64,000 nucleotides of DNA, from NCBI GenBank assembly GCA_031425295.1, contig JANPJB010000007.1, forward strand, positions 1,459 through 65,458. Reading direction: 5' to 3'. The position numbers and the translations under genes are program-made. How positions within the stretch are numbered: the stretch's first letter is position 1; each line of letters opens with the position of its first letter. The stretch is from Flavobacterium sp. (GTDB lineage: Bacteria; Bacteroidota; Bacteroidia; Flavobacteriales; Flavobacteriaceae). Positions 34,075 to 54,430 of the stretch are shown here, one piece after another. The notes below the pieces were generated by a model. It was given only the letters and a program-made list of their open reading frames with translations, was not told the origin of the DNA and did no database searches.

Positions 34075-34219
34075 CAAAATTCAATATAAAGCAGTTATGG
34101 AGAATTACATCATTCCTTCAATTTCTTATATTTTAATGCGATAACTACTGCCAATAAAAATTTTACAACTTATACCGCTTAAAATATAAATACAATAAAA
34201 AAAAGTAGGTATAAATTTG
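34075..34219. promoter_or_regulatory. Divergent cphA/cphB promoters with shared upstream motif
   Basis: cphA (-): TGATGTAAT (34112-34104) N21 GAATTTTG (34082-34075); cphB (+): AAATATAAA (34182-34190) N21 TAAATTTG (34212-34219). Confidence 0.5.
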
Positions 34220-34234
34220 AGGAAAACATAGTAC

Positions 34235-35089
34235 ATGAAACTCAAAAGTAAATTTGTCATTATCGGCGGTCCTGCAGACGGAATTGAAAGCAAAAGCGAT
34301 ATTCAAGGTTTTAAGGTTGCTGGAATTCTTGAGCGCATCCTTAGCGAATCAGCTAAAGGAAATGACTCCCGGATCGAGATTATTACAACCGCTTCCTCCG
34401 ACCCTGAAGAAATCGGCAATGAGTATAAGAATGCATTTCATAAACTGAATGCCGCTCATGTTGATGTCCTCAGCATAAAGTCACGAGAGGAATCGGAAAC
34501 CGCCAAAGTCATCAAACGCATCGAACAGGCTGATGTCGTTCTTTTTACGGGCGGCGATCAGATCAGATTGACTTCCATTTTAGGAGGATCTCTATTTTTC
34601 GAAGTCATTAAAGACCGACTTACCAAAGATGCCAATTTCATGTATGTCGGCATTTCGGCAGCCGGGGCCGCTGTATCTGAAAGTATGATATGCGTCGGCG
34701 AAAGCAATACCGCTATCAATAAAGGGAATGTTCAGACTGGTACGGGATTCGGCTTGGTCGAAAACGTGATGTTTGACACCCATTTCATTCACCGCGGAAG
34801 AATTGGTAGGTTGCTGCAAATTGTGGTGACCAATCCTAAAATTCTTGGTGTTGGACTCGAGGAAAATAGCGGCGTAATCATACAACACAATCAAATGGAA
34901 GCCATAGGGTCAGGCATGATCATGATTATTGACGGGCAAGAAATAAAAAATTCTAATTTACTTGAAATAAAATCCGGTGCGCCGCTGTCTATTGAAAACC
35001 TCAAATTGCATGTGATGAGCCGAAGCGATACTTTTAATTTGTCCGATCGTTCCTTACAAATTATTACTCCTGAGGAATGTAGATTATAG
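34235..35089 (+). CDS. cphB: Cyanophycinase (peptidase S51 family), diverged
   Basis: IIGG, IITTAS, FTGGDQ.RL, GISAAG, DTHF..RGRIGRL, GLEEN; next to cphA. Confidence 0.85.
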   Translation: MKLKSKFVIIGGPADGIESKSDIQGFKVAGILERILSESAKGNDSRIEIITTASSDPEEIGNEYKNAFHKLNAAHVDVLSIKSREESETAKVIKRIEQADVVLFTGGDQIRLTSILGGSLFFEVIKDRLTKDANFMYVGISAAGAAVSESMICVGESNTAINKGNVQTGTGFGLVENVMFDTHFIHRGRIGRLLQIVVTNPKILGVGLEENSGVIIQHNQMEAIGSGMIMIIDGQEIKNSNLLEIKSGAPLSIENLKLHVMSRSDTFNLSDRSLQIITPEECRL

Positions 35090-35121
35090 CATCTTCAAAA
35101 CTTTGACCTACAGTATTTAAA

Positions 35122-35150
35122 GCCGATAACTCAAATTATCGGCCTTTTTT
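35122..35150 (+). terminator. Intrinsic terminator after cphB
   Basis: GCCGATAA-ctcaaa-TTATCGGC followed by a T-run. Confidence 0.8.
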
Positions 35151-35369
35151 ATGCACATTAATCTGTCGGGGAATTCAAATGTAGATCTAAATTTTCTGTT
35201 TATTTCAACTTATACTTTTAGGCATATATGTTAATGTTTAAAATTGTATCGTTTTAAAATTAGTTGTATCGATAATAAGTGTATTTTTGTCGATGAAATG
35301 AGTATTTTAATTTTTATTGTAATCATTTTCGCCCAAAATTGTTACTCCCAAATCTAACAATAATCTACT

Positions 35370-38300
35370 ATGAAAAGAAGTATACCTAATATCTTCCATG
35401 CTTGCTATGCACTAATTTTTCTGACTGGCATTTTTACCGGAAATGCGCAATCAACCACAGTTTTCAACGACGACTTTACGACTTCAGCGGGAACATCTTT
35501 CACTACCACTGCAGGAGCAGTTGGAACCAGTATCAAATGGAATATGTCGCGCAGCGGCGCCGACTTTGGTGCCAGAATTACCTCTGGCAGTATGTCACTA
35601 TCGAATGATGCTTCATCAGCTGGTAATGTGAACGGTTGGGCACTGGCTTCAACTAGTACAGCAGCTTTTATAACACCCTACAATACCACTTTAAGTTCCA
35701 ACCCAGGCATGGTGACTTGGACGTTCAATATGCGACAACCACAGGCAAATCCTAGTGGCTTTGCTTCAGGAAATTATGGTGCTGTTTTTATATTAGCCGG
35801 TACCTCAGGAACTACTAATGCAAGCGGAACAGGATATGCAGTGACACTCGGTAACTCAGGAAAAACTGATCCTTTGAAATTGGTAAGCTACTCAGCCGGT
35901 CTTCAAACTACATCGCAAATAGTAGCTTCTAATACTACAGGATTGACTGATTTTGGAAACACTTATTTGAGCGTAAAAGTTACCTACACGCCTAGCACTA
36001 ATACTTGGCAATTGTATGTTAGAAATGACGGCTCAACTTTTATAGATCCGAATAGTGGAAGTTTAACCTCACAAGGAACGGCTGTCAATAGTACTTATAC
36101 TTTTACAGCTTTACCAATAATGGGCGCTTTTTGGAATGCAAGTACAAGAGCTAGCCAAACAGCGCTTTACGACAATGTCAAGGTAACGGTGGCAATGCCA
36201 ACAACAACTTCTATTTCTCCACCATCAAAAGTAGCCGGAACCGGTGCGTTTACGCTTACCGTTAACGGAACTGGTTTTGTAAGTGGTAATAGTGTGGTTA
36301 GATGGAATGGCAGCAACCGAACCACCACTTTTGTTTCTGCTACACAATTGACAGCTTCTATATTGTCAACAGATATTACTTCTTCCGGGACGGCTACTGT
36401 AACCGTAGCGAACGGCGCCGCTGTTTCCAACGGACATACATTTACAATTGACCTCGCAGGTGCACCCAACATAAGTCTCTCTACTAGTGCTTTAAGTACG
36501 ATGACCACGGTAACCGGAACAACTTCTTCTGCACAAACTTATAATGTAAGTGCCAGTAATTTAACAGCAGATGTTGCCGTTACGGCGCCAACCAATTTTG
36601 AAGTGTCCTCAAACGGCACAACTTATTCAGGTTCAATTGCGCTTACCCGAACTGGAAATGTGCTGGTGGGCCAACCGGTTACAGTATATGCCCGTGTCAA
36701 GGCTTCTGCACCATCAGGATTATACACGAATACAATTACTCATACTACTACCAGTGGTGCTACTAAATCTATCGCTGTGTCAGCCACGGTTATTGCCTCG
36801 AAACCAACAACGCAAGCCACAGCAGTTACTTTTACGACAGTAACTTCAACCACTTTTACGGTCAATTGGACTAACGGCAATGGCGCTAATCATTTGGTTT
36901 TAATTAGAAGCGGCGGCGCCGTTAATTCCAATCCGGTAGATGGTGTTATGTATACTGCCATAAACTCTTTTGGAGCCGGTTCAGAAATTGGCACCGGAAA
37001 TTATACAATCTATTCTGGCAACAGCAATACAGTTAACATAACTGGATTACAACCAAACACTGCTTACCATGTTGCCGTTTATGATTATAATGGTTCCGCA
37101 GGTACAGAAAGTTATTTAACTACTAGCCCAGCAACAGGAAATAGAACCACACTTAATGCTCCTGTAGGTTGGCAGATATACAGTACTAATACAACGAATA
37201 CCATTACATTTGACACCACAGTAGATGGGGTTAATGAAGGAACGTATCAAGCTGCAGGATTGTCACCGACTCTAACGAACGGTGAGCTGGATTCTGATGC
37301 TTGGGCTATCACAGGGTTTAGTGATGGTGCGATTGCTTTTGGAGGAACTAGCACCGATGGCTTGGATTATGACCGAGGAACGGCAACAGGAGGCGTTACA
37401 ATAGGAGGTGTGTATGCTTTTGAAACTGCCACTAATAATTTTGCTTTAGGAATACAACCAGCAAACGGCGATTTTGTCCCGGGTTCCGCAACACTTCGGT
37501 TTCAGAATCAAACAGGGACAGCGTTAACATCGTTAAGTATTGGATACAAAGTATACGTTTATAATGATCAGGCAGCGTCGAGTAGTTTTAATTTCAGTCA
37601 TTCGGCAGACAATTCCACTTACACGAGTGTTTCCGGATTAAACGCAACCTCACCAGCAACAGCCGACGCGTCACCCACTTGGAAATCCTATTATCGTGTA
37701 GTCACTTTAACAGGATTGAATGTAGCCAATAACAATTATTATTACTTCAGATGGACCGGAGCAACTGTTTCTGGCAGTACTGATTTTGACGAATTTGGAT
37801 TGGATGATATTGTAATGGTCGCCAATCCGTCAACTAATTATGCCTCTTTTAGCGGAACAGCAGAAAACTTTGCTGTTTTGGGAAATACCACGTTATCGGG
37901 AAGTACAACTGTTTCCACTGATTTGACCATTAATGGCGGTAAAGTTGAGCTCAATGGCAATACATTAATCCTCAATGGAACGGTAACCAACACTACTTCG
38001 GGAGGATTAAAAGGCAGTGCTTCCAGTAACCTAACGATAAGTGGTGCAGTTAACCCGTCTTTGAGTTTTGACCAAAGTACTTTGGGAACCACGAATTTAT
38101 TGAATAATGTTAGCATCAATACCACCGCTTCCAATTCCGTTACCATTTCAAATCCCGTAGTTGTCAATGGAACTTTGACAACCGCTTTGGGACAAACACT
38201 CAACATGGGTACCAATGCCTTAACGGGTACTTTAACGACGATTGCCAATAACGGAACCATTGCTACTCAAAATACGAGTTCATTACCAATACCTTCAGGG

Positions 38301-41300
38301 AAAACCTGGAGCGGAACGGGGACTGTAAATTATAATGCCGCTTCCGCAACGCAAACCATAGTGGTCGGGACATATCAAAATTTAACATCTTCTTCTACAG
38401 GAGGAGCAATTGCAGCTGGAAACTTAACCGTTAACGCAGTCTTGAGTCTGCCAACAGCAAATCCTTCTTCAACTGCAGGAAGTCTTACTATGGGAACGTA
38501 TACGCTTACTATGGGAGGGAATGCTACTAACATAGGAATAGGAGATGTTACCGGCACAGTAACCCGAAACAATATTACAGCAAGTACACTTTACACTTTC
38601 GGACATGCGCACACATCAATTATATTTCCTAATATCGGAACATTACCAACCTCAATGAGTTTGAAAATTGCTATTGGAACAGCGCCGAGCTGGCGAACCG
38701 GAGCCATAAACAGAACCTATGATTTTATTCAAACCGGAGCTACAGGAACTAAGGCGGTTCTCAAAGCCCATTATTTAGATTCTGAATTGAATGGAAATGT
38801 TGAAACAAAATTAGTGGATTGGGCATACATCGTTTCGTCGTCTACTACTTTGGAACAAGGAAGATCTAATTTTAACACTACAGACAATTGGGTAGAACTG
38901 ACCAATGTGAATGTTGGTTTGTATTTCACCGGAACGTTTGGTCAGGTATTATTAACATTGGATGAATCTGCTGCCGGCTCACTTACGTGGAATGGGACTG
39001 TCAGCGATTCTTGGACAACAGCGACCAACTGGACACCCAACGCGACACCATCGGATTTGACCATAGTTTATATTCCGGATGCCGCCACAACGCCTAATGA
39101 TCCTACGCTGAACCCAACCGTTTTGCTTGGGTCATTAAATATTGATGCGGGCGGAATTTTAAATGCACCTGCTAATTCGCAGTTTACCATTAACAATGGC
39201 GCCGGAGCATGGATTAATAATGGAATATACATTCCAGGAACAGGGACAAGTGCCGTTATTTTTACGAGTCCTGATGCAACTATGGCGGGAAGTACTAACT
39301 TTAATAATATAACTATTAATTCCGGAGCCAGCTTGAGACCTTTGACCGATAATATAATGCAGATTGCAGGAGCATTCACTTTGACTGGAAGTTTTGCTTC
39401 AGGAATGCTTGAAAATACAGTGATCTATAGCGGAACAAACCAAACCGTTGTGAATCCGAATACAGGTTTTCAAGCGTATCATAATTTGATTATCAATGGA
39501 ACTGGCGCTATTTTCCCAACGTCTTTGAATATTACCGATGATTTAACGTTGAATCAAGCGGTTGATTTTACTGGTAAAACAATAGTCATGACAGGGATGG
39601 AACCGCAACATATTTTCGGTACGGTCACGCCTGCCTTCAATAATCTAACTATTAATAATACTCTTGGAGGTGTTTCATTGGCAACTAATTCAGCTGTAAA
39701 TGGAACTTTAACCCTAACATCGGGAAATTTAAATATAGCGAATTACAATTTATTGTTAGGAGCAAATGCCGTTTCAGGCAGTTTTTCAGCCACCAATATG
39801 ATTGTGGCGTCTGGTTCAGGAGAGTTGCGAAGAACTTACGTTGGAACTGGTTCTTATACTTTCCCGTTAGGAGATTTAACAGCTGCAGCAGAGTATTCAC
39901 CGATTACAGTAAACATAACTTCAGGCACTTTTTCGAGTGCGTATGTCGGCGTTTCTGTTACTGACGCCATCCATCCTAACAATGCCAGCGCATCGAACAA
40001 TATCAGTCGTTATTGGAATGTAAAAACATCTGGAATAACGGGAGCTGTTGCAACCATAACCGCTTCGTATTCCGCCCAAGATTTGACAGGTGCGGAAAGT
40101 AGTATTGGCGCATCCCAATTAAACGGGGTTTTCAACCAATCGACCAACTCGTGGGTTAAATTTACTGCATTGTCAGGTTCGACTTTAACGGCAACGGGAG
40201 CCTTGCTCACTTCGGGACAGACTTCGGTATTTACAGGCATTAAAGCCGCGGCATTCACAGCAATGATGTACGGACAAGGTGCATTTTGTCAAAACCAATC
40301 TGTAACGCTGACCGGTTTAGGCAGCAATGGAGATCAGCCTTTCACGTATTCGTGGTCCGGCGGATTAGGAACACTAGCTACTGCAACACCGCCAACAGCT
40401 ATCGTTGGAACGGTAAATTATACGCTAACTATGAAAGACGCAAACGGAATCACCGCGACAGACAATGGCAATGTAGTGACCCTTGCGCCATCAAACGGCG
40501 GCAGTATCACCGCAAATCAAACGGTATGCTCCGGAACGATTCCGAACGATTTGATCCTAACTTCGTATACAGGCAATATTTTATTGTGGCAGACCGCTTC
40601 CGATATCGGATTCAGTGCACCGCAAGCTGTAGAAAACACAACGGCTTCGTTTTTAGGAACAGCCATCGGCGCCGTAACTGCAACTACGTATTTCAGGGCT
40701 GTGATTCAAAACGGTTCTTGCAGTGAAATTTATTCGCCAGTTACTGCTATAATAGTAAAATCAACCACGTGGAATGGGAGCGCTTGGAGTAATAGCGCGC
40801 CCGACAGTGTAACCGCTGCGATTATTTCGGGGAATTATACGTCGTCTGGAAACATCAATGCGTGCAGCCTAACGGTCAACAACAACGCGGTGGTGATTAT
40901 CGCTTCAGGGCATAACGTACAATTGAATGATGCGCTGACCGTGACGTCCGGAAGTTTCACCATGGAGAACAACGCAAGTTTACTGCAATCCAAAGATGTC
41001 GCGAATTCCGGAAATATTATCGTTAACAGAAATAGTTCGGCGCTACTGCGCCAAGATTATACGTTATGGTCTTCGCCGGTTTCTGGGCAGAATATGTTGT
41101 CTTTCTCGCCATCAACGCTGCCGAATCGCTTTTATGGTTATAATACAACAACAAACGTATACAATGCACTAACGCCATCGACGACTAATTTTGCGACGGC
41201 GCAGGGCTATCTAATTCGGATGCCGAACAATCATCCGGCAACGCCAACAATCTGGAACGGTCAATTCAACGGCGTTCCAAATAACGGAAATGTTCCCGTA

Positions 41301-42314
41301 AGCATGGTCAATAATGGAGGAAGTCAGATTTATAATCTCGTCGGAAATCCGTATCCGTCACCGATCAGCATGACGCAGTTTGTATCCGACAATTCAAACG
41401 CCATAACCGGGACGCTTTATTTCTGGAGAGAAACCAATAACAACACTGCTAACAATCCGTATTGCACTTGGGCGGGCGGAACCTTTACGAGCGATGGAGA
41501 ATCGCAGGTATTCAATCCTAGCGGGATTCTTCAGACTGGACAAGGATTTTTCGTCGCTGCAAAACCTTCTCAAACCAATTTGGTTTTCAAGAATACGCAA
41601 CGAATCGCGAACAACAGCAACCAATTCTTTAGAAATACAAATACCGAAGAAAGAAACACCTATTGGCTCAATGTCACCAATAGCTCGGGCGCTTTTTCAC
41701 AAATGGCGGTCGGATATATTACAGACGCGACACAAGCGGTAGATTTTTTTGACGGTCAATATTTTGAAAACGGCGATGTTGCACTCAACTCCATTTTGGA
41801 AAACGAAAATTATACGATCCAAGGACGCGCACTGCCGTTTGATCCTACTGACAATGTGACCTTGAGTTTCAAATCCGCGACCGCTGGGAATTATACGATT
41901 GCGATTGACCATACAATCGGATTATTTGATGCAAGCCAGGGTATTTTCCTCAAAGACAACCTGACCAATACGGTGCATGATCTGAAAACCGGTGATTATA
42001 CTTTTGCCACCGAAGTAGGAACATTCAGCAGCCGTTTTGAGATTGTTTATCAGAATACATTGGCAACTACGCAGCCTGTTTGGAATGCCGACCAAGTTGT
42101 AGTTTATAAACAAAATCAGCATTTGGTTATCAATGCGGGAACGCGGAATATGTCGGCGGTTCAGATTTACGATATTCGCGGCCGTTTAATCATCAATAAA
42201 ACAAATATCAATGCAGCCGAAATCATTCTGCCATTGCGTAATGTCAATGAAGTGTTGATCCTCAAAATAACTTTGGATAATAAAGTGGTCGTCACCAAAA
42301 AAGTAATTCATTAA
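35370..42314 (+). CDS. 2314-aa T9SS-secreted Thr/Ser/Gly/Asn-rich surface protein
   Basis: Signal peptide; IPT-like (SISPPS...LTVNGTGF), Fn3-like (FTVNWTNG...[13 protein letters not shown]), beta-strand repeats, WNG..W motifs; CTD VVVYKQ...IYDIRGR...KKVIH. Confidence 0.88.
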
Positions 42315-42345
42315 CTGTATCGTTTTCCGCTCTAAAAATTCATAG

Positions 42346-42377
42346 AAAAAAAAGCAAGTCCAACGACTTGCTTTTTT
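42346..42377. terminator. Bidirectional terminator between the giant T9SS gene and the nuclease gene
   Basis: AAAAAAAAGCAAGTC-CAAC-GACTTGCTTTTTTT. Confidence 0.85.
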
Positions 42378-42430
42378 TATTTCCTTGGTTCAGTTCCTTG
42401 AATAAACTTGCGAGAGTGCAATTCCATTTA

Positions 42431-44110: not shown

Positions 44111-44330
44111 TGGATATCGTATCGATTCTAGGTTTCAGAAAGTGAATGATTTTGGGCAAACATACAAATAAATCGGGTTTTTTCAGGCATATCTCGCTAG
44201 GTGAATAGCAAAATTAGTCAATCCATCGATAATTGTTGATGAAGTTATTTTGCACTGAAATGTTTTTTTTACATTTGCAAATCTACGAGCCCATTGACAG
44301 CAAAAAATTTTAACCTCTTACATTACTCAG

Positions 44331-45857
44331 ATGCGTACCGAAATTAGTAAAGTAGAACTTCGTAACCTGCGCATTGAGGATTACCAGGAACTCAAAAACT
44401 CTATGGTTCAAGCCTATAGCGAAATGGAAGGTTCTTACTGGAAAGAGCATCACATTCGCAACCTGCTGAACATATTTCCTGAAGGGCAGTTGGTCATCCT
44501 TGTCGATAACAAAGTCGTCGGTTCCGCACTGTCGCTAATTGTCAACACGGAGCAAGTGCTCAAAAACCACAATTACGCGGACATTACAGGCAATTATACG
44601 TTCTCCACACATGATCCTTTGGGCGATGTTTTATACGGAATCGATGTGTTCATCCATCCCGATTATCGTGGGCTTCGACTAGGGCGCAGGCTCTACGACA
44701 CGCGCACGGAATTGTGCGAACAGCTCAATCTTACGGCCATAGTTTTTGCTGGGCGCATTCCGAATTTTACGAAACACGCCGGAGAAATGACCCCGAAGGC
44801 GTATATCGACAAAGTGCGCCAGAAAGAATTATACGATCCGGTGCTGTCGTTTCAACTCAGCAACGATTTTCACGTGATCAAAGTGATGAAAAATTACCTT
44901 GTAGGCGATAGCAGTTCTCAGGACTATGCGGTATTGCTAGAATGGAATAACATTTACTATGACAAAAGTCCACAATTGATCAACGTCAGAAAGAGCGTCA
45001 TCCGCTTGGGATTGGTGCAATGGCAAATGCGACCGCTAACCAACATTGAGGCTTTGTTTGAGCAATGCGAATTTTTTGTCGATGTAGTTTCCGGCTATGG
45101 CAGTGATTTCGCGCTTTTTCCTGAACTTTTTATTGCGCCTTTGATGGTCGATTTCAACCATTTAGGTGAAGCCGATGCCATTCGGGAGCTGGCACAGTAT
45201 TGTGAGCCGATTCGCAAACGTTTTCAAGAACTCGCGATTTCTTACAACATCAACATCATTACCGGTAGCATGCCTTACCTCGAAAATGGCAATCTTTATA
45301 ATGTAGGTTTTTTGTGCAAGCGTGATGGTACTTCTGAAATGTATACCAAAATTCATATTACGCCGAATGAAGTTTTGTATTGGGGAATGAAAGGCGGATC
45401 AGAAATCAAAACTTTCGATACGGACTGCGGTAAAATTGGGATTATGATTTGCTACGACGTCGAATTTCCGGAACTTTCGCGGCTCCTGGCAGACGAAGGA
45501 ATGGATATTTTATTCGTGCCTTTTCTGACTGATACGCAAAACGGATACACGCGCGTAAAACATTGCGCTCAAGCACGTGCGATTGAAAATGAATGTTATG
45601 TTGCCATTGCAGGTTGTGTAGGGAACCTTCCGGGTGTCAATAATATGGATATACAATATGCCCAAACCGCTGTTTTTACGCCGTCGGATTTTGCGTTTCC
45701 AACGAATGGCATCAAGGGTGAAGCGACACCAAATACAGAAATGACACTCATCGTCGATGTCGATATTGACCTGCTCAAAAAGCTACACGAACATGGTAGC
45801 GTCCGAATATTAAAAGACAGAAGGCACGACCTTTATCGCATCTCCAAATTGAAATAG
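44331..45857 (+). CDS. GNAT acetyltransferase / carbon-nitrogen hydrolase fusion
   Basis: HPDYRGLRLGRRLY acetyl-CoA motif; nitrilase triad FPELF, YTKIHITP, ICYDVEFPE. Confidence 0.92.
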   Translation: MRTEISKVELRNLRIEDYQELKNSMVQAYSEMEGSYWKEHHIRNLLNIFPEGQLVILVDNKVVGSALSLIVNTEQVLKNHNYADITGNYTFSTHDPLGDVLYGIDVFIHPDYRGLRLGRRLYDTRTELCEQLNLTAIVFAGRIPNFTKHAGEMTPKAYIDKVRQKELYDPVLSFQLSNDFHVIKVMKNYLVGDSSSQDYAVLLEWNNIYYDKSPQLINVRKSVIRLGLVQWQMRPLTNIEALFEQCEFFVDVVSGYGSDFALFPELFIAPLMVDFNHLGEADAIRELAQYCEPIRKRFQELAISYNINIITGSMPYLENGNLYNVGFLCKRDGTSEMYTKIHITPNEVLYWGMKGGSEIKTFDTDCGKIGIMICYDVEFPELSRLLADEGMDILFVPFLTDTQNGYTRVKHCAQARAIENECYVAIAGCVGNLPGVNNMDIQYAQTAVFTPSDFAFPTNGIKGEATPNTEMTLIVDVDIDLLKKLHEHGSVRILKDRRHDLYRISKLK

Positions 45858-45879
45858 GATTATACATCGATATTCAAAC

Positions 45880-45915
45880 AAAAGGGACAAATCAAATTTT
45901 TGGTTTGTCCCTTTT
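45880..45915. terminator. Bidirectional intrinsic terminator
   Basis: AAAAGGGACAAATCA...TGGTTTGTCCCTTTT between convergent genes. Confidence 0.8.
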
Positions 45916-45931
45916 GTTCATCAGTAGGTTA

Positions 45932-46393
45932 TCATATTGTGCGGAATAATGCATCGAAGCCTAAAAATACGAAAGCCATGGTGACACCGAAAATGATGTG
46001 CGCAAAAAAAAGTTGTAGGTAATATTCTGATACTTTTACTGGCGGTCTTGCGTGTGACGATCTGAACATGATTTCCCAGCCGAGGATTCCAACAATCCCA
46101 AAGAGGCAGCCACTTACGAAACCGGATGTCATTGTAACTTGGTACCAATTAAAGTGAAACCAAAACGGTAACCGATACAAAATTACAAATAACAATCCTA
46201 TGAAATAATGCAATAGCCAGCTGGCAATAATTTTCTGGTGCTTCAACAATTCAATATGAAATGCCGCCATCACGAACTGTAGCAATACCGGTTCTTTGTA
46301 CAATTTTCTGAAATTTTCGGATAGCAGATAACTGAACAAAGTCATTGTAGAAGTTGCTAGTAGCGCTGCTGCGATAACCGTAATGAATTGCAT
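45932..46393 (-). CDS. Hypothetical 4-TM membrane protein
   Basis: ATSTMTLFSY, W.LH..IG, HIIFG; hydrophobic; 12 bp downstream of the oxidoreductase. Confidence 0.75.
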   Translation of the reverse strand: MQFITVIAAALLATSTMTLFSYLLSENFRKLYKEPVLLQFVMAAFHIELLKHQKIIASWLLHYFIGLLFVILYRLPFWFHFNWYQVTMTSGFVSGCLFGIVGILGWEIMFRSSHARPPVKVSEYYLQLFFAHIIFGVTMAFVFLGFDALFRTI

Positions 46394-46405
46394 AGTAAAT
46401 TGAAT

Positions 46406-47980
46406 TTACAAATTCCGGTTTAACTTTTTCAGGTCTTTTTTGGATGGTCCGTTAATTACAGTACCATTACAGGAAAAACGCGATCCGTGACACGGACAGT
46501 CGAATGATTTCTCGTCATCGTTCCAATTGACAATGCATCCCAAATGTGGACATTCCGCGCAGTACGTATGCAATATACTATCCTCATCACGGTACACTGC
46601 AATCTTAGAAAGGCCTGATTTGATAATGCCGCCCTGACCTTTTTGTAACGCTTCTGCATTCTCAAAATCCGCTGGACTAAACCAATCAAAATATTGCGCA
46701 GCCATGTTGGCTGCTTCCGAGACAAAGTCTTTCGCCGTATTGAGCGTGATGCGCGACGGACTGTATAAATCTTGCCATGGACTGACGACACCATTGATGA
46801 GGTCATTGATGATCATCGCGCCGATGGTGGTATGCGTCATGCCATTTCCGGAATCTCCAGTGATAATATAGATGTTGTCATCGCCCGGGTTTTTACCCAT
46901 GAAGCCAAGCGAATCAACCGGTTTCATTACTTGGCCCGACCAATAATAGGCTATATTCTGCATGGCGGGAAATTGCGTCCTAGTCCAATTTTCTAGATTG
47001 AAATAGCGGTCTTGTTCGGGTATGTGCTCTTCATCAGCTTGGCCGGTCTTATGATCTTCACCACCTGAAATCAAGAGATCGTAATCATCATCGAATTCCT
47101 CCAGCCTTACATAATGATATGGTTGTGAAACCCAACGCGAATCGGCATTTCCTGTGTCCCACCATAAAGCGTCAGGCAATGCGCCTTTTCTTACTTTCGC
47201 GGCGATGACATAAGTTCGGTAAGCAGCCTGCTTCGTATGCATCGTCAGGACGTCGTTAACGGGCGTGTTTGTAGCTACGACGATATGGTCTGCTTTGATG
47301 TCAAACCCGTTTCCGGTCGCACCATATTTGGTTATCTGCTCGCCACGGGTTTCAGTATAAATTTTCCCGCCCATTGCGACAATGCTGCTGCAAAGTCCTC
47401 TCAGATATTTGATGATGTGAAATTGAGCCTGTTGTGGAAATTGTATACTCGTCAACGCATCTGACAAACCTGGCGTTCCATGCACCAGCATCGTGTTGAT
47501 CCCGGCGGCCTGTGAGGCTGTCAACTCTCTAAGTAGATTTTCGTTTTGATCTGTCGGATCGAGGAAAAGATAGCCGTCGACCCATTTGAAATTACAGTCG
47601 ATATTGCCGTTTTTGACAATATCTGCAATCATTTTAATGGCAGCCATGTGGCTTTCCGCAGCCAGCGCAGCCGATTGTTTTCCGAAAGTTTCCTCCAAAA
47701 AATAGTAGCGGTCATCCAATGCACAAGACAAATGCGCTGTGGTTCGACCCGATTCGCCGCTGCTGATGAATCCGTCCTCGATGACAGTCACTTTTTTACC
47801 GGATTGCAATAATAAATAGGCAGTCGTCAAGCCAGCAATACCGCCGCCTATGATTAATACTTCGGTCTGAATGCTTTCACTTAATGCTTCATAGGCGATT
47901 ATCTGTTGCTGATCCAACCAAAAGGAAAGGTTATTTCCTGAGGTTTTATTAGGATTCAATTCTGGATCTGATTGTTTCAT
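46406..47980 (-). CDS. FAD-dependent oxidoreductase with C-terminal Rieske [2Fe-2S] domain (YhfW-like)
   Basis: IIGGGIAG, SGESGRTTAHL, GDSGNGMTH; Rieske CPHLGC and CPCHGSRF. Confidence 0.92.
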   Translation of the reverse strand: MKQSDPELNPNKTSGNNLSFWLDQQQIIAYEALSESIQTEVLIIGGGIAGLTTAYLLLQSGKKVTVIEDGFISSGESGRTTAHLSCALDDRYYFLEETFGKQSAALAAESHMAAIKMIADIVKNGNIDCNFKWVDGYLFLDPTDQNENLLRELTASQAAGINTMLVHGTPGLSDALTSIQFPQQAQFHIIKYLRGLCSSIVAMGGKIYTETRGEQITKYGATGNGFDIKADHIVVATNTPVNDVLTMHTKQAAYRTYVIAAKVRKGALPDALWWDTGNADSRWVSQPYHYVRLEEFDDDYDLLISGGEDHKTGQADEEHIPEQDRYFNLENWTRTQFPAMQNIAYYWSGQVMKPVDSLGFMGKNPGDDNIYIITGDSGNGMTHTTIGAMIINDLINGVVSPWQDLYSPSRITLNTAKDFVSEAANMAAQYFDWFSPADFENAEALQKGQGGIIKSGLSKIAVYRDEDSILHTYCAECPHLGCIVNWNDDEKSFDCPCHGSRFSCNGTVINGPSKKDLKKLNRNL

Positions 47981-48109
47981 GATATTTATTGTTTAATACC
48001 CGAGGAATCGACAAACGTTCTGGCAAAAAGCATCAGGTATACGTTGAAAGTCTGTTCTGATAGCGTATTTTTTTCATGGCACTATTCAATTTTCGATGCG
48101 TTTCGAGTT

Positions 48110-48529
48110 TCAATCCAATGTTTGGACTTCAACGTCGAAACAGAATTGTCGCCAGTCGATATTGGAAAGTGTTTCTATAATATATTTATGCTCCTTAAAA
48201 TTTACCGGCTTGCTGATGATGTAATTCGCGCCGCGTCCTATAAATTCGCGCTGTAGATTTATGGAACAAGAACCGGTAATCATTACCACCGGGATATCCT
48301 TAAATTCGGATGCTCTGATTGATTTTAAAATTTCTAGTCCATCAGAAGGCGGCATGAAATAATCTAGTAGAATCAAATCAGGTCGTTTTTCGGTATTTGA
48401 CAGCGCGGCTAACAATGCTGCACCATCAAAAAACGATCTGGTTTCATGTCCGAAAAAATGCGCAGCTTCGGTAAAAATATTTAAGTCATCAATGTCATCA
48501 TCAGCGTAATAAATCAGTAATGGTTTCAT
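48110..48529 (-). CDS. Single-domain response regulator (receiver only)
   Basis: ADDDIDD, LLDYFMP phospho-Asp, ITGS, ISKP; no output domain. Confidence 0.9.
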   Translation of the reverse strand: MKPLLIYYADDDIDDLNIFTEAAHFFGHETRSFFDGAALLAALSNTEKRPDLILLDYFMPPSDGLEILKSIRASEFKDIPVVMITGSCSINLQREFIGRGANYIISKPVNFKEHKYIIETLSNIDWRQFCFDVEVQTLD

Positions 48530-48548
48530 AGTAGTAGATTTTGAATCC

Positions 48549-48585
48549 CAAAGTTCCTACAAAAAGCGACCAACAATTTATATGA
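48549..48585 (-). promoter_or_regulatory. Promoter with TCATATAAA motif (receiver gene)
   Basis: TCATATAAA (48585-48577) N20 GAACTTTG (48556-48549). Confidence 0.6.
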
Positions 48586-48661
48586 TTTGAACCGTTGTTT
48601 ACGAAATCGTAGGATGGCTTTAATAATAAAGATTGCGAGTACAAAAGTCGAAATCACAACC

Positions 48662-50869
48662 TTACTTCCACTTGATTGTAACTATAGAATCTCCCAGAAT
48701 CGAATATTCCAATTGTTTATCAGCTGCTTGCCGTAATGGAATAATCCTTTCACTTTTACCGCTTCCAATAAATACCATAAAATTTTGTGCTCTCGGTTTG
48801 ACATCGCAAAGTATCAGCATGCGGCATTCGAATTTTGCATCGCCGATGACTTTGAACGAAGCACTGCTGTAATGGCTGGTGCGGAAGTTGGCAATTGGAT
48901 AATCGCAATACACCATAAAGCGTTCTCCTTTAACTTTTCGGTACTGTCGCGGGACGATTCCAAAAGCGATGCCTGCACCATAAACTTCTTGTCCGACGCT
49001 GCCGCTTTTGTCCCAGCCGTCTTGTAAATCTTCGATGGGGATCCATAATTTTTTGTCGACTTCACCCGTTTTGACTTCATCGGAAAACATATAATCCGGA
49101 AGCAATGGCGGATAATAATAGGCAATTCGGTTAACCGTAAACCGTACGAATTCCGACAGCAGTAGTTTTACAGAAGGTAGAATTTCAATACCTTCAGCAA
49201 GCAGCAAATATTGCGATAAAGCGGTGTAGACTTCTAGCGCTTCATAAGCATCGGCATACGCTCCATCATTCAGCGGAAAAACCGCAAAATATGTATCATA
49301 GTCTTTTGCATTGCCGTATTTACATTCCCAAAGGTGCACGTTTTTTAAAATCGCTGCGATGCACGAATAGCTTAAGTTTAGGAATTGTTCGTCTTTGGTT
49401 TCTCTATAAAGTTGTAATAGCGCGCCGGCTGCAAACGCAGTATTCTTTGCCTGATAAAAGATATCGACGCCGAGTCCGAACAATGTTTTGGATGCCTTTT
49501 CGGCTTCATGAAAGTATTTTTGGTCGTCCGTTAGTTTCCAAACCAACAACATCAGATGTGCGTAGGAACCGGTAATAGCTGTTTCGCCGTCCTGACCGAT
49601 TTCTGCTTCTTGATTTTTGACTTCCAACGTATCCATTTTAAAGCGTACGGGCCATTCATACTTAAAATGATGGGCAACCTCGATCGCATACCCAATAGAA
49701 TCCATCAGTAATTTCTCCGCATTTTTGTCGCCTTCTAAGGCAAGTCTCGCGAGGTTCATCAAAGGCTGGTGCAAATACCAAGAATCCATCACCATGTCTC
49801 GTTTTTGTTCTGGCGATTTATCGGGTTTGTCGACTTGCGACGGCAGCCAGCGTAACATGGTTTTAATTTTGTCATCATAGAAAGCTTCGAGTCCGGATCT
49901 TAAATCATTGCTGATTTTATGTTTGTCACCACTCCACTTAAAATATTCGGACACAGGAAGCAACACTGCCAATTGCACCATACATTCTACCGGCGTAGCA
50001 TAATCACAGAAGTATGCATTCAGATATGGAATTCCTTCTGATTGCGTCCAACATCCTTTGTTGTCAGATAAATCGTTTAAGGTTTTTAAAGCAATATCGA
50101 TCCAATGCTCGTATTTTGTTTCGGGCTTTGGCACCAGTTCATAAACAGCCGCAAGATTGTTCAAGAATTGTGTTGTGACTTCTGCATCAGTTTCGGGATT
50201 TTCTTCACTGAGCAGCACATAGGCATCGGATATCGTGTAATTTGTGTTAGCAGGAAGCGGATTCCCGTCAGCAATCGGAAGCTGAAAACCTATTTCGGGC
50301 CAGCTACCTCCGACAGTTTCTGCCAATGAGGTTTCGGTAGCGCTGCAATATCCACAAATTGTAGTCAAGTTTTGAAAGTAAAAAACCGATCCTGGTTTCG
50401 GACGCGTATTGCTCGCAAATAGGAGTCCACTTCGGGTACCAACCTGATGCACGTGTACTTTCCCAGTCGTATTTTCTATGCTGTCATTTTCGGTCAATGG
50501 CACAATGTCGCGCGGCCAATAGGGAATGAGTATCGGAATTTCTGCGTTGAATGTCGTAGTGTAATGGAATAGCGGCTTATTTTGATCCGGAAATTGAATT
50601 CGGACTTCATAGTTGCCGATCTGGGTGCCGAACTGCAGCACGATCAGGTTTCCATCATCAATTAAATTTTGCAGTTCGAAACAATTGTTCAGACCGAACG
50701 CAGTCCTAAATCCCATTTTACCGCCGTTGGGCCATCGCGCGGTGAGCCAAATTGAAGTTGCGGCATTGTTAATTTCAAAAGTATATCCTAACATCTCTTT
50801 TTTTAAGAGCACTTGTCCGTCTTTAAGATCAGTTTGCACAGTAGCAATCGACGGTGATATCGTATTCAT
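48662..50869 (-). CDS. 735-aa conserved-looking hypothetical cytoplasmic protein (possible alpha/alpha-toroid carbohydrate-active fold)
   Basis: Long uninterrupted ORF, no signal peptide; beta-rich N-terminus and helical, aromatic-rich core (DSWYLHQPL, GQEVYGAG). Confidence 0.7.
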   Translation of the reverse strand: MNTISPSIATVQTDLKDGQVLLKKEMLGYTFEINNAATSIWLTARWPNGGKMGFRTAFGLNNCFELQNLIDDGNLIVLQFGTQIGNYEVRIQFPDQNKPLFHYTTTFNAEIPILIPYWPRDIVPLTENDSIENTTGKVHVHQVGTRSGLLFASNTRPKPGSVFYFQNLTTICGYCSATETSLAETVGGSWPEIGFQLPIADGNPLPANTNYTISDAYVLLSEENPETDAEVTTQFLNNLAAVYELVPKPETKYEHWIDIALKTLNDLSDNKGCWTQSEGIPYLNAYFCDYATPVECMVQLAVLLPVSEYFKWSGDKHKISNDLRSGLEAFYDDKIKTMLRWLPSQVDKPDKSPEQKRDMVMDSWYLHQPLMNLARLALEGDKNAEKLLMDSIGYAIEVAHHFKYEWPVRFKMDTLEVKNQEAEIGQDGETAITGSYAHLMLLVWKLTDDQKYFHEAEKASKTLFGLGVDIFYQAKNTAFAAGALLQLYRETKDEQFLNLSYSCIAAILKNVHLWECKYGNAKDYDTYFAVFPLNDGAYADAYEALEVYTALSQYLLLAEGIEILPSVKLLLSEFVRFTVNRIAYYYPPLLPDYMFSDEVKTGEVDKKLWIPIEDLQDGWDKSGSVGQEVYGAGIAFGIVPRQYRKVKGERFMVYCDYPIANFRTSHYSSASFKVIGDAKFECRMLILCDVKPRAQNFMVFIGSGKSERIIPLRQAADKQLEYSILGDSIVTIKWK

Positions 50870-51015
50870 AAAGAAAATTTAAATTAATCAATTCGATTTG
50901 TTAAATACAATGAATCAATTCAAAACATCTACTCCTACGAATAGCGCGCTCTGAAAATGAAATCTGAAACAGAACGTAATCGGCATAACGCGTATTTTCA
51001 TAGGATAAAGTGTTA

Positions 51016-51148
51016 CAAAAATGATGATTAAAAATTCGAAATTCTTATATCATTTAATCTTGTTTTTATACAATTCATCATAGATGGAATAGTACAATTT
51101 TTTCGCATAATCATATAAACTCTAGTGCCATAGCCGCCTATAAATTTG
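51016..51148. promoter_or_regulatory. Divergent promoters with shared motif (735-aa gene and DUF892 gene)
   Basis: (+) TCATATAAA (51111-51119) N21 TAAATTTG (51141-51148); (-) TGATATAAG (51052-51044) N20 CATTTTTG (51023-51016). Confidence 0.6.
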
Positions 51149-51175
51149 TATAAATAAATTATAAAACTTGTTACT

Positions 51176-51766
51176 ATGAAAACTACAGAAAAAGAGGCAC
51201 CGACAAAAAATCAAGTCACAAGGAACGCAGCAAAAGGAACCGTTAAGGCAAAGTCCTCAGCAGCCGAAGGATTGCGTCAATTGTTTATAGATTCTCTGAA
51301 AGATATCTATTGGGCTGAGAAAGCCCTTACAAAAGCATTGCCTAAAATGGCAAAAAATGCCACGACAGAGCGTTTGGTCATGGCAATAGAAGATCACTTA
51401 GGAGTTACAGAAAATCAGATTACAAGACTTGAGGAAGTTTTTGCAATCGTAGGTGAAAAGGCAGTAGCCAAAAAATGTGATGCCATGGAAGGACTCATTA
51501 AAGAAGGCGAAGGCATCATGGAAGAAACCGAACCCGGGGCTGTCCGTGACGCAGGAATTATTGCCGCTTCGCAAAAAATTGAGCATTACGAAATTGCTAC
51601 TTACGGTACATTGGTAGCGTTCGCAATAACTTTGGGAGAAAACGAAGCTGCGGAATTACTCGGCGCTACATTGGCAGAAGAAAAAGAGGCCGACGTAACA
51701 TTGACGGAAGCTGCATATCACAACATCAACTTCGAGGCCGCAGACGCGGATGAAAACGAAGTGTAA
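51176..51766 (+). CDS. YciE/YciF (DUF892) ferritin-like protein
   Basis: LKDIYWAEK, HL..TENQITRL, CDAMEGL..EG, QKIEHYEIATYG, EEK.AD. Confidence 0.93.
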   Translation: MKTTEKEAPTKNQVTRNAAKGTVKAKSSAAEGLRQLFIDSLKDIYWAEKALTKALPKMAKNATTERLVMAIEDHLGVTENQITRLEEVFAIVGEKAVAKKCDAMEGLIKEGEGIMEETEPGAVRDAGIIAASQKIEHYEIATYGTLVAFAITLGENEAAELLGATLAEEKEADVTLTEAAYHNINFEAADADENEV

Positions 51767-51787
51767 AATTTGGTTTTTGTTAGATGG

Positions 51788-51824
51788 GCCCGTAAGATTT
51801 TCGGATTTTGCGGGCTTTTTTTTT
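51788..51824 (+). terminator. Intrinsic terminator after the DUF892 gene
   Basis: GCCCGTAAGA-ttttcgga-TTTTGCGGGC followed by a T-run. Confidence 0.75.
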
Positions 51825-52024
51825 GTAGTTGCGAATAAATTTTTTAAAACCACGTTCAGCTTAAATCAAATTGTGCTACGTACAAAACAAATTTTAGTTC
51901 GGAAGTATAACCAATTTTAATGGATGATCCGCGATTGATACGGTAAGATTAATAAACTATAAAACGACAATCGATTTCATAAAAAAACCTGAAGAAATTC
52001 AGGCTTTTTATTTTTAATGAAGGA

Positions 52025-53194
52025 TTATTTCCAAGGATCAAGTACTATCTTCACGCAACCATCTTCTTTATTATTGAAGATATCGTAGGCGTGCGCAATT
52101 TCCGAAAGTGGCAAACGGTGTGTAATGATATCATCCAATTGTACTTTCCCGCTGACCACATATTCCAATAGCTTGTCGATATGTTTGTGAGCCGGTGCCT
52201 GACCGCCTTTCAGAATAATGCCCTTATCGAAAAATTGTCCGACCGGAAAATTATCGTACAAATATGGATATACGCCCAATACGGATACGATACCGCCACG
52301 GCGTACGGCACTCATACAGGCTTCCATCACTTTTGTAGATCCCTTCTCTAAATTTAGGACGGATTTCGCACGATCGAGGAAACTTCTATCGGGTTCAAAG
52401 CCAACCGCATCAATGCAAACATCTGCGCCGCGTCCTTCAGTCATTGCACGGACGCGTGCCACAACATCTTTAGCATCATCATCCCAAAGAATCGTTTCTG
52501 AACCTGTGGTCGTAGCTGCTTTATCCAACCTGTATTTTAAAGTGTCGATAACGATAACCCGTCCAGCTCCGCGAAGCCATGCACTTTTTGCTGCCATCAA
52601 ACCAACGGGTCCGGAACCAAAAATGGCGACCGTTTCTCCGCCTTTGACTTCACCCCAATCGACGCCTGTATATCCGGTCGGAAATATATCAGTCAGGAAC
52701 AAAACCTGCTCATCGGTGAGGTTGTCCGGTACCACGCGGGGTCCGAAATTCGCGTATGGTACTCTTACGTACTGTGATTGTCCTCCGTCATAACCTCCGT
52801 ATAAATCTGTATAGCCGAACATTCCACCTCCTTTTTCAGTTAAAACTTCGCCTTCAGGACCGTAATGTTCGGGATTGCTGTTTTCACAATGTCCGGGTAG
52901 ATCGTGGCTGCAAAAAAAACAACCACCACAGGCTATTGGAAAAGGAACCACCACGCGATCGCCACGCTTTAGGTGCGTCACACCACTACCGACCTCCTCA
53001 ATGATGCCCATAAATTCATGCCCTAATACCATGGGACGTGGTTGTGGAATTCCGCCTGAAAAAATATGCAAATCGGAACCACATATGGCAGTCGACGTTA
53101 CCTTTAAAATGATATCATCTGTTGCTTTTAATTTTGGGTCGTCGACATTATCGTAAGTGATTTTACCGGGACCGTGTATGACTGCTGCTTTCAT
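52025..53194 (-). CDS. Zn-dependent alcohol dehydrogenase (glutathione-independent formaldehyde dehydrogenase-like)
   Basis: Likely start MKAAVIHG at 53194; ICGSDLH, LGHEFMG, CGGCFFC...C, FGSGPVG, DAVG. Confidence 0.92.
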   Translation of the reverse strand: MKAAVIHGPGKITYDNVDDPKLKATDDIILKVTSTAICGSDLHIFSGGIPQPRPMVLGHEFMGIIEEVGSGVTHLKRGDRVVVPFPIACGGCFFCSHDLPGHCENSNPEHYGPEGEVLTEKGGGMFGYTDLYGGYDGGQSQYVRVPYANFGPRVVPDNLTDEQVLFLTDIFPTGYTGVDWGEVKGGETVAIFGSGPVGLMAAKSAWLRGAGRVIVIDTLKYRLDKAATTTGSETILWDDDAKDVVARVRAMTEGRGADVCIDAVGFEPDRSFLDRAKSVLNLEKGSTKVMEACMSAVRRGGIVSVLGVYPYLYDNFPVGQFFDKGIILKGGQAPAHKHIDKLLEYVVSGKVQLDDIITHRLPLSEIAHAYDIFNNKEDGCVKIVLDPWK

Positions 53195-53296
53195 AATTAT
53201 TTTGTGTTTTATAGATGAAGTGAACCAAGATTCTTCACCATATTGATTTATTATACGTGCAGCTTGGTAAGCTGGCTCCTCCGAAAGATTTTGAAA

Positions 53297-53322
53297 CAAA
53301 AACCGCTGCGTTCCAGCAGCGG
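53297..53322 (-). terminator. Intrinsic terminator after the acidic low-complexity gene
   Basis: Minus strand CCGCTGC-tggaac-GCAGCGG followed by TTTTTG. Confidence 0.7.
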
Positions 53323-53332
53323 CAGTTAGTCT

Positions 53333-53896
53333 TTAAAGGCCGGGTGTCCTTGTAGTCCCATATCCTCCGCCTTCATTATTTTCCGAATCTTCAAAATCAT
53401 CTTCGTCCTCAAGATCATTTTCAGCGTCGTCATCTTCAAAATCATCTTCTTCAAAATTATCATCTTCAAAATTATCTTCTTCCGTATCATCATCTTCCAT
53501 ATCATCTTCATTCGTGGCGTTTTGATCTCCGCTATTGTACGTTCCGGAGTTGTCCGGGCCTGAACTTCTAGGACCTGAAGTGACGGAATTCCCTGATTCA
53601 GAGTAATCGGCGTTTCCTGATCCGGTTTTGGTAAAGTCCCCTTCACCACCATAATTGGCGGCATCAGCGTTGTCAGAGCGTGTATTTGGGGAGTTGCCAG
53701 AATTGCCCCCATAATTTCCAGAGTTTGAATTGTTAGCATTGGTGCTACCGGAATTCGCGGCGCTTAAATTGCTTCGTTCGTTTTCGGAATATTGCGATTG
53801 GTCCTTATTTCTTGATGGCAAACCCGATTGTTGCGCGTCGTTTTGCTGCGAATTACGATCGTTTTGATCATAATTTCTGTTGCTGTTATCTTCCAT
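53333..53896 (-). CDS. 187-aa low-complexity, predicted disordered protein (N/S/G-rich, acidic C-terminal DDFEE repeats)
   Basis: Composition of the translation; own terminator; ATG 2 bp after an upstream sORF. Confidence 0.7.
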   Translation of the reverse strand: MEDNSNRNYDQNDRNSQQNDAQQSGLPSRNKDQSQYSENERSNLSAANSGSTNANNSNSGNYGGNSGNSPNTRSDNADAANYGGEGDFTKTGSGNADYSESGNSVTSGPRSSGPDNSGTYNSGDQNATNEDDMEDDDTEEDNFEDDNFEEDDFEDDDAENDLEDEDDFEDSENNEGGGYGTTRTPGL

Positions 53897-53898
53897 AG

Positions 53899-54006
53899 TT
53901 ATTTGCTTTTTGTGGTACTTTTTTTTGCTGTGCTTTGTTCAGATTTGCTAGAAGCACTCTTTTTTTCCGATGGTTTTGCTGCCGGTATGGCATTGGTTGC
54001 TTTCAT
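53899..54006 (-). CDS. 35-aa Lys/Ser-rich small protein MKATNAIPAAKPSEKKSASSKSEQSTAKKSTTKSK
   Basis: Manual translation; below the ORF-track cutoff; directly downstream of a -7 box and 2 bp upstream of the next ATG. Confidence 0.6.
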   Translation of the reverse strand: MKATNAIPAAKPSEKKSASSKSEQSTAKKSTTKSK

Positions 54007-54034
54007 AATTATAGATTTTTAAATTAAACTTTTA

Positions 54035-54072
54035 CAAAGTTAGCATGGGCTGCATTGGCTAGTTTTATATGA
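54035..54072 (-). promoter_or_regulatory. Promoter with TCATATAAA motif (sORF and disordered protein)
   Basis: TCATATAAA (54072-54064) N21 TAACTTTG (54042-54035). Confidence 0.65.
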
Positions 54073-54430
54073 AAAATTCGTTAAGTTATATAATTACCAC
54101 ACAACGTTTTGAAGTCGATTTTACAGTTAAGACCGTCAATGCTTGTAAAGTTAATTGCGTTGCAAACGCATTTATCAAAAGACTTGAATTCGATAAATCA
54201 CAGCAATAAAAGCGCACTCTTTGTGTAAAAAAATCTGTGAGGCGAAGTACACTTTCAGCATCAAGTAATCATAAAAAACCGACCATTTCATAACATTGAA
54301 ATGATCGGTAAATTATGAGTAGATTGCGTCTAAAAGAAAAGTTTCGGTTCTAGTTGTAATCGGAAGAAACGGCAACATTTATAGTTTTGTGGTATCATCT
54401 CCACAATTTCAAATTGAAGTACGCTTAAGT

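Follow-up and report, generated by a model that had tools for sequence, protein, structure and literature searches.

A bipartite direct repeat upstream of cyanophycin and stress-type genes in Flavobacterium, predicted to be read by an AraC-type activator

The window analysed here is a 64,000-nucleotide (nt) stretch of a Flavobacterium genome (contig C7:1459-65458; source assembly G000, 3.11 Mb in 146 contigs, 40% G+C), in which six promoters, those of the cyanophycin genes cphA and cphB and of four transcription units of a stress-type cluster, share an upstream element. A first-pass annotation had described this element as a 9-mer, TCATATAAA in its exact form, placed ahead of a -7 box, and all six sequences are present where it had located them. 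The 9-mer is real but is merely the proximal half of a bipartite direct repeat. Each of the six promoters carries two direct copies of AATTnTRTAA, the TRTAA cores of which lie exactly 21 bp apart, and a sigma-A-type -7 box, [TGC]AnnTTT[GA], follows 20–21 bp past the proximal copy.

The six promoters and their genes

The best site of the window (54035–54099, minus strand) has its distal copy, TGGTAATTATATAAC, at 54099–54085 with the core TATAA, its proximal copy, TTTTCATATAAAAC, at 54075–54062 and the box TAACTTTG at 54042–54035, with a spacer of 21. Its score of 24.2 with a position weight matrix (PWM) built from relatives' sites is the third highest in the genome. Downstream (53333–54004, minus strand) are a 35-aa K/S-rich small open reading frame (sORF; 54004–53899) and the gene of a 187-aa disordered protein rich in N, S, G, D and E (53896–53333); in relatives, K/S-rich sORFs of 45–58 aa are found under the same promoter type. 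A terminator-like hairpin (~53325–53300) follows the disordered-protein gene and separates it from a Zn-type alcohol dehydrogenase (Zn-ADH) gene (52025–53299, minus strand). We considered the Zn-ADH gene as a direct member of the regulon and rejected it: it has no site of its own and the hairpin lies upstream of it. Its most likely start is the ATG at 53194 and not the TTG at 53299, which gives a product of 389 aa like that of the orthologue in G015 (83% identity).

The DUF892 promoter (51084–51148, plus strand) consists of the distal copy ATGGAATAGTACAAT at 51084–51098 (core TACAA, 51093–51097), the proximal copy TAATCATATAAACT at 51108–51121 (core TATAA, 51114–51118) and the box TAAATTTG at 51141–51148, with a spacer of 21, and precedes a gene for a 196-aa YciF-like DUF892 protein (51176–51766, plus strand; Pfam PF05974, E 2.8e-55). 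The neighbouring promoter of a 735-aa protein gene (51016–51079, minus strand) combines the distal copy GATGAATTGTATAAA (51079–51065, core TATAA), the proximal copy AAATGATATAAGAA (51055–51042) and a weak box, CATTTTTG (51023–51016), at a spacer of 20; it scores 21.4 with the PWM and leaves a leader of ~146 nt. The 735-aa protein (gene at 48662–50869, minus strand) had no match in Pfam or NCBIfam and has an orthologue with 53% identity in the stress island of G015.

The receiver promoter (48549–48612, minus strand) has the distal copy CTACGATTTCGTAAA at 48612–48598 with the core CGTAA, the proximal copy AAATCATATAAATT at 48588–48575 and the box GAACTTTG at 48556–48549, with a spacer of 20. It is followed by genes for a single-domain receiver (48529–48110), an FAD/DAO and Rieske oxidoreductase (47980–46406) and a 153-aa membrane protein (46393–45932), as identified by Pfam; from their spacing and orientation, the three (45932–48529, minus strand) probably form one operon. 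Orthologues of these genes occur in the stress islands of G015 and G008, and two more single-domain receiver paralogues of this genome (C2:21174 and C136) have strict sites (see below).

The cphA promoter (34075–34139, minus strand) carries the distal copy GCATTAAAATATAAG at 34139–34125 (core TATAA), the proximal copy GAATGATGTAATTC at 34115–34102 (core TGTAA) and the box GAATTTTG at 34082–34075, with a spacer of 21. The open reading frame behind it (31373–34024, minus strand) encodes the 883-aa cyanophycin synthetase CphA, a name taken from the first-pass annotation and an orthologue search. Homologues of cphA were found in 28 of 81 relatives. The closest orthologue (68% identity), the second cphA copy of G017, has TATAA-N16-TGTAAT-N20-GAAATTTG directly upstream in surrounding DNA that cannot be aligned; cphA membership is therefore conserved in this cphA lineage. 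Most Flavobacterium cphA genes (~59% identical) have no repeat upstream and carry other conserved promoters instead, so we rejected these mainstream orthologues as regulon members and confine the repeat to the lineage of the window's own type. The mainstream loci (L059–L078) share upstream words, TATTTTTAACAAA in one group and TAnTTTAGTTGCA in another, which suggests that most of the genus controls cyanophycin synthesis in another, conserved way. In two relatives, cphA copies lie 2–25 kb from DUF892 genes (G013:C25 and G006:C12), and the linkage of cyanophycin genes to a stress cluster is thus not unique to this genome.

The candidate cphB promoter (34155–34219, plus strand) has the distal copy TAAAAATTTTACAAC at 34155–34169 (core TACAA, one mismatch), the proximal copy TTAAAATATAAATA at 34179–34192 and the box TAAATTTG at 34212–34219, with a spacer of 21. 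It precedes an open reading frame of 284 aa (34235–35089, plus strand), a putative cyanophycinase by the first-pass annotation. The PWM score of this site is 14.5, within a range in which shuffled sequences yield about half as many matches. The proposal that nitrogen storage belongs to the regulon therefore holds for cphA, with its exact bipartite site conserved in another species, and for cphB it is plausible but uncertain. The specific news from the window is that cphA, and perhaps cphB, would be in the regulon.

The repeat across this genome and its relatives

To define the element, promoters were taken from the stress islands of three congeners solely by the pattern T[AG]TA[AC], N19–22, a box and a downstream open reading frame (n=24), which left the distal block unselected. 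Exactly 21 nt further upstream of the proximal core, this block showed T in 20, G in 18, A in 21 and T in 21 of the 24 promoters, and TATAA in 19–24 of 24. The distal consensus of these relatives is TGnnAATTnTATAA and that of the proximal copy TAATTnTRTAARAA. Core variants are TATAA, TGTAA and the TAGTTAATTAAC type. The DUF892 orthologues of other congeners likewise have T[AG]TAA ~21 nt upstream of a TAnnTTT[GA] box, and with the closest cphA orthologue they bear out the expectation that the architecture is kept upstream of orthologues, the element being conserved in part of the genus Flavobacterium. The DUF892 loci L010–L013, L021, L022 and L026 (of G020, G006, G004, G024 and G013) form a second promoter group, in which a conserved palindrome, (T)TGTAAATAGTTAATTAACAA, lies ~23 nt upstream of a TAATTTTA-type box and replaces the TRTAA repeat; the palindrome could be an operator of the same regulator family that has diverged, or else belong to a different regulator. 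We also considered a palindromic, Crp/Fnr-type reading of the repeat itself and rejected it, as the site, judged by eye, is palindromic in just one orthologous promoter (L003).

The window was then scanned for a distal core, a proximal core (at most one mismatch summed over both) and a box at 19–22. The scan returned seven matches, the six sites and one intragenic match at 41160; 300 local shuffles gave 0.8 on average (at most 4), and other periods gave 0–4. In the intergenic DNA of the whole genome, pairs of T[AG]TAA numbered 51 at a period of 21, compared with ~15 (range 6–28) at each other period from 6 to 60. Among 100 intergenic sites with a proximal core and box, an exact distal core stood at offset 21 in 19, versus ~0.9 at other offsets, and a one-mismatch core in 14, versus ~5.5. 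By this offset control, sites of the exact class (cphA, the 735-aa gene and the sORF) are about 95% true, and those of the one-mismatch class (cphB, DUF892 and the receiver) about 60% true before other evidence is considered; the DUF892 and receiver sites gain added support from orthologues and paralogues.

These counts also settle how the 9-mer is to be read. The pattern TCATATAAA-N20/21-nAnnTTTG turns up three times in the window, where 0.02 would be expected; of the 51 copies of the 9-mer in the genome, just three have a -7 box at N20–21, all of them in the window. The predicted genome-wide enrichment failed for the 9-mer with one or two mismatches at N20–21 relative to other spacings, and emerged once the distal copy was added. 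The three sites regarded as weaker, those of cphA, cphB and the 735-aa gene, look like background by the 9-mer definition, which was our own first verdict on them; this verdict was overturned by the second core exactly 21 nt upstream. 

It is hardly credible that the repeats arose by chance from the AT richness of intergenic DNA, or form a phased feature resembling an UP element without a dedicated factor. TATAA-like words are indeed frequent in AT-rich spacers and, as said, mismatched copies of the 9-mer show no excess at the proper spacing; yet a period of exactly 21 bp gives the only peak, the window holds seven matches where shuffles give 0.8, and the sites are kept at orthologous promoters with unalignable spacers, with 0–4 matches per genome for reversed controls. 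For these controls we used a strict pattern, TRTAA-N16-TRTAA-N20–23-TANNTTTR, and its reverse on 49 congeners and 16 other families of the order. It matched 12 times in this genome (one reversed match) and 9–49 times in ~15 of the 49 congeners, for example (matches/control) 49/3 in G015, 34/4 in G041 and 25/2 in G017; in the rest of the genus and the 16 other families it remained near background.

The 22 strict sites of this genome have a spacer of 20 in seven cases and 21 in 15, and none has 19 or 22, although the search admitted 19–22. Many of the boxes are weak, position 1 being G or C or position 8 being A. A 40-nt PWM trained on relatives' sites and scored on this genome gave 12 matches of at least 20 bits versus 0–1 in shuffles. 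It misses the DUF892 site, and its 15.1-bit match at the receiver site is in the wrong register, because the sites of this species have diverged.

The genes downstream of strict sites include those for the catalase KatE, Ku, a receiver–LigD operon, GH130, three single-domain receiver paralogues, the 735-aa protein, the sORF/disordered-protein pair, CphA and several small secreted proteins, as well as a 154-aa lipoprotein gene followed by a putative YtxH-like gene, so named from its sequence, and a gene for a putative SRPBCC protein; the DUF892 gene is counted with them. Outside the window, the divergent Ku and KatE genes (G000:C2:17242-17416) have two palindromic TTATAA cores 21 bp apart common to both promoters, and on either strand these cores make a complete bipartite site with a box for each gene. 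In relatives, the same promoter type precedes Dps–CsbD genes, genes for SpoIIAA-like proteins and more DUF892 copies. We estimate that the regulon would comprise about 25–35 promoters in this Flavobacterium, and its content, which resembles that of sigma-B, RpoS and EcfG regulons, suggests by itself a general-stress nature. The period-21 peak, the strict sites and the gene content together support the earlier proposal that a regulon of the stress type, marked by an upstream element of its own, extends over the genome. In larger Flavobacterium genomes, fusions of CheB, CheR, PAS and kinase domains (~1080 aa; L034:2462-5704, L035:5051-8296 and L033 from 15368) lie beside catalase and single-domain receivers in stress islands and may be further inputs to the same circuit.

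Candidate regulator and competing readings

The placement of the element relative to the core promoter bears on the kind of factor that reads it. A TTG peak lies 19 nt upstream of TAnnTTTG boxes genome-wide, and this canonical -33 TTG is absent from the six window promoters; the 9-mer ends 20–21 nt upstream of the box, and so the motif occupies the place of the -33 element, as the first-pass annotation had stated. If the box is placed at -12 to -5 relative to the start site (PMC9723704), the proximal copy would span about -44 to -35 and the distal copy about -69 to -56. Judged from this geometry the sites are of class II activator type: they abut the -35 position, the -33 element is missing and the distance to the -7 box is fixed.

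An alternative sigma factor, or an appropriator of sigma-A, that reads TRTAA as a -35 element would account for the replacement of the -33 motif, and such a factor had been offered as an option beside an activator. We consider it very improbable. The genome encodes a single region-3-containing (Sigma70_r3) protein, sigma-A, besides 12 sigmas of the extracytoplasmic function (ECF) type, and among these the longest reading frame, the only long one, is an ordinary ECF sigma and not PhyR-like; a second housekeeping-like or PhyR-like sigma was sought and none is present in the genome. The boxes are of sigma-A type without the ECF-like CGT, and recognition by a sigma factor leaves no role for the second conserved copy, at about -60. 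These sigma-A-type boxes and this second copy point much more strongly to an activator than to a sigma factor. Also improbable, if a little less so, is a repressor, of the AraC type or another, that covers the -35 region and lets the promoters fire once it leaves. The proximal copy overlaps the place expected of sigma region 4, and a site that overlaps -35 could in principle serve a repressor, which counts against activation; but the missing -33 TTG and the many weak boxes are as in activator-dependent promoters, and the rigid 20–21-bp distance to the box is typical of activation by polymerase contact and is not needed for repression. The element is probably the docking site of a small, unstudied AraC-type activator.

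The candidate transcription factor (TF) is a 185-aa protein of the AraC family (G000:C2:28556-27999), encoded near the catalase/Ku/LigD island of contig C2 as the first of a three-gene operon with a 150-aa single-domain receiver and a CHASE3-PAS-HisKA kinase. Its C-terminal AraC domain, with two helix-turn-helix units, was confirmed at residues 96–174 (Pfam HTH_18, E 2.9e-16; HTH_AraC, E 3.8e-10). A profile search of the PDB matched YesN, XylR, GadX, AraC and SoxS, and Foldseek gave TM 0.75–0.8 to the DNA-binding domains of AraT, GadX, YesN and AraC; among solved structures, the response regulators YesN and AraT come closest with their AraC-type output domains, followed by XylR, GadX, AraC and SoxS. 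In the AlphaFold model (pLDDT 84.5), the N-terminal domain of ~65 residues adopts an HMA-like ferredoxin fold, beta-alpha-beta-beta-alpha-beta, with strands and helices spanning residues 2–62 and a weak likeness to the copper chaperone CopZ.

Across relatives, this triad of TF, receiver and kinase genes keeps company with the motif. In nine of 13 relatives surveyed for synteny, the triad lies directly behind a motif-bearing promoter: with the site immediately upstream in G017, G011 and G070, behind motif-driven Dps–CsbD genes in G015, G012, G041 and G008, and behind other motif-driven genes in G021 and G047. G011 and the Dps–CsbD genomes have another motif-bearing promoter after the triad. We also selected 80 loci by TF similarity alone, from Flavobacterium, Chryseobacterium, Gelidibacter, Chitinophagaceae, Cyclobacterium, Prolixibacteraceae and others, and searched 3.5 kb on either side of each. 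Period-21 TRTAA pairs around the TF genes were enriched ~5-fold, with 47 versus ~9.5 in Flavobacterium and 87 versus ~17 in other genera, on the TF strand only and clustered at fixed positions. In 14 loci, including ones from Chryseobacterium, Ferruginibacter and Prolixibacteraceae, a strict pair stands 40–400 nt ahead of the TF start. Metal-type paralogues of the TF, HMA-like/AraC proteins of 186–187 aa, adjoin genes for HMA-domain proteins or P-type ATPases (G000:C92:7750-7990, C40:2488-3719, L050 and L051); TGTAA-N16-TGTAA is found upstream of those on C92, L050 and L051, and the paralogue on C40 has no upstream pair at the 21-bp period. The family may have diverged into two branches, one for stress and one for metals, whose operators are similar.

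Several observations weigh against this assignment. No site lies upstream of the TF gene in this genome, where we accordingly rejected autoregulation, or in the closest subclade (G057, G006 and G013). The phyletic fit is imperfect, as G019 has a TF homologue with 53% identity and no strict motif match. This genome has four paralogues of the TF family, and therefore it is by orthology and synteny that the regulon is assigned to the C2 copy. The conserved TG of the distal copy is missing from the proximal one, and TF genes would lie close to sites as well if the triad were no more than a member of the regulon. The last point, with the missing site at the TF gene and the case of G019, leads to a reading in which the bipartite repeat is real and is bound by another protein, such as a response regulator of the LytTR type or an unrecognised factor. 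LytTR sites, as of AgrA, ComE and PlnC, are direct repeats with a period of ~21 bp, a period that the repeat fits as well, and LytTR regulators are encoded in the window (9182–9928) and in the G008 island. We regard binding by another protein as unlikely, though less so than the other alternatives. Among the loci read, which were not a systematic test, no LytTR gene was consistently linked to the sites; the association of TF and motif over the 80 TF-chosen loci is strand-specific and reaches distant families; and the 14-nt distal site, in which the blocks TG and TATAA are spaced by about a helical turn, is a good fit for an AraC domain with its two helix-turn-helix units.

Predicted circuit and comparison with known systems

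On balance we think it rather probable that the six sites are class II-type activator sites of a regulon of the stress or stationary-phase type, read by the HMA-like/AraC-type TF together with its receiver and kinase. A dimer of the 185-aa AraC/XylS-family TF would bind both copies of the repeat and recruit sigma-A RNA polymerase. Its activity would be set by the two proteins encoded directly downstream, the receiver and the CHASE3-PAS histidine kinase, and TF and detached receiver would thus be the two parts of a 'split' REC-AraC response regulator; the single-domain receivers driven by the motif, the copy in the window among them, are probably feedback partners or phosphate sinks. We put forward more tentatively, as a possibility, that a general stress or dormancy programme of Bacteroidota has the TF, receiver and kinase as its master switch, works without an alternative sigma through a rigid bipartite site on sigma-A promoters and in this lineage has recruited cyanophycin synthesis and Ku/LigD end-joining alongside catalase and protective proteins.

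A full-text search of the literature turned up neither a published regulator of a general stress response in Bacteroidota nor any description of this element or regulator. The sigma motifs described in start-site studies of F. psychrophilum and B. thetaiotaomicron do not include this element; we considered whether the PM2 motif of B. thetaiotaomicron or SM1-6 of F. psychrophilum could be the same element and found no correspondence as far as the text of these studies shows. The analysis yields a defined predicted operator, a predicted regulon of ~25–35 promoters and, as candidate regulator, a named TF together with its kinase and receiver. If the predicted circuit is true, it would provide the first regulatory handle on cyanophycin synthetase outside cyanobacteria and would tie nitrogen storage and repair by non-homologous end joining to a dormancy-type programme in an abundant environmental phylum.

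Among known systems, the LytTR sites of AgrA, ComE and PlnC (9-bp repeats with a 12-bp spacer) are alike in being direct repeats of ~21-bp period just upstream of a poor -35; here, however, the repeat sequence is unlike known LytTR boxes and no linked LytTR gene was seen among the loci read. The closest parallel in promoter architecture is that of AraC at araI1–araI2 and XylS at Pm. The araI2 half-site spans about -51 to -35, and both araI1/araI2 and XylS at Pm have the class II geometry proposed here: two direct half-sites with a 21-bp period, the proximal one abutting or overlapping -35, each half-site with two conserved blocks about a helical turn apart, and a weak core promoter served by the housekeeping sigma. 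The TF also shares their AraC DNA-binding domain. Unlike those regulators, the TF has an HMA-like ferredoxin-fold domain and no sugar- or effector-binding cupin domain, control is presumably exerted by a separate receiver and kinase, and the predicted binding would serve a stress regulon of ~25–35 promoters, not a catabolic operon, on the -7/-33 promoter type of Bacteroidota.

The REC-AraC regulators YesN and AraT and the hybrid two-component systems of Bacteroides that have an AraC output resemble the triad in that the DNA-binding domain of the TF is nearest to the output domains of YesN and AraT and in that a kinase and a receiver are encoded in the TF operon; here the receiver is a separate polypeptide, and the HMA-like domain takes its place on the TF. 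With the general stress systems, sigma-B of Bacillus, RpoS of Enterobacteria and PhyR-NepR-EcfG of Alphaproteobacteria, the regulon shares KatE, Dps and CsbD (in relatives), a putative YtxH-like protein, DUF892/YciF, disordered hydrophilin-like proteins and single-domain receivers that would feed the switch. It differs from them in that, as read here, it would operate without an alternative or dedicated sigma, and in that Ku/LigD and cphA are among its members.

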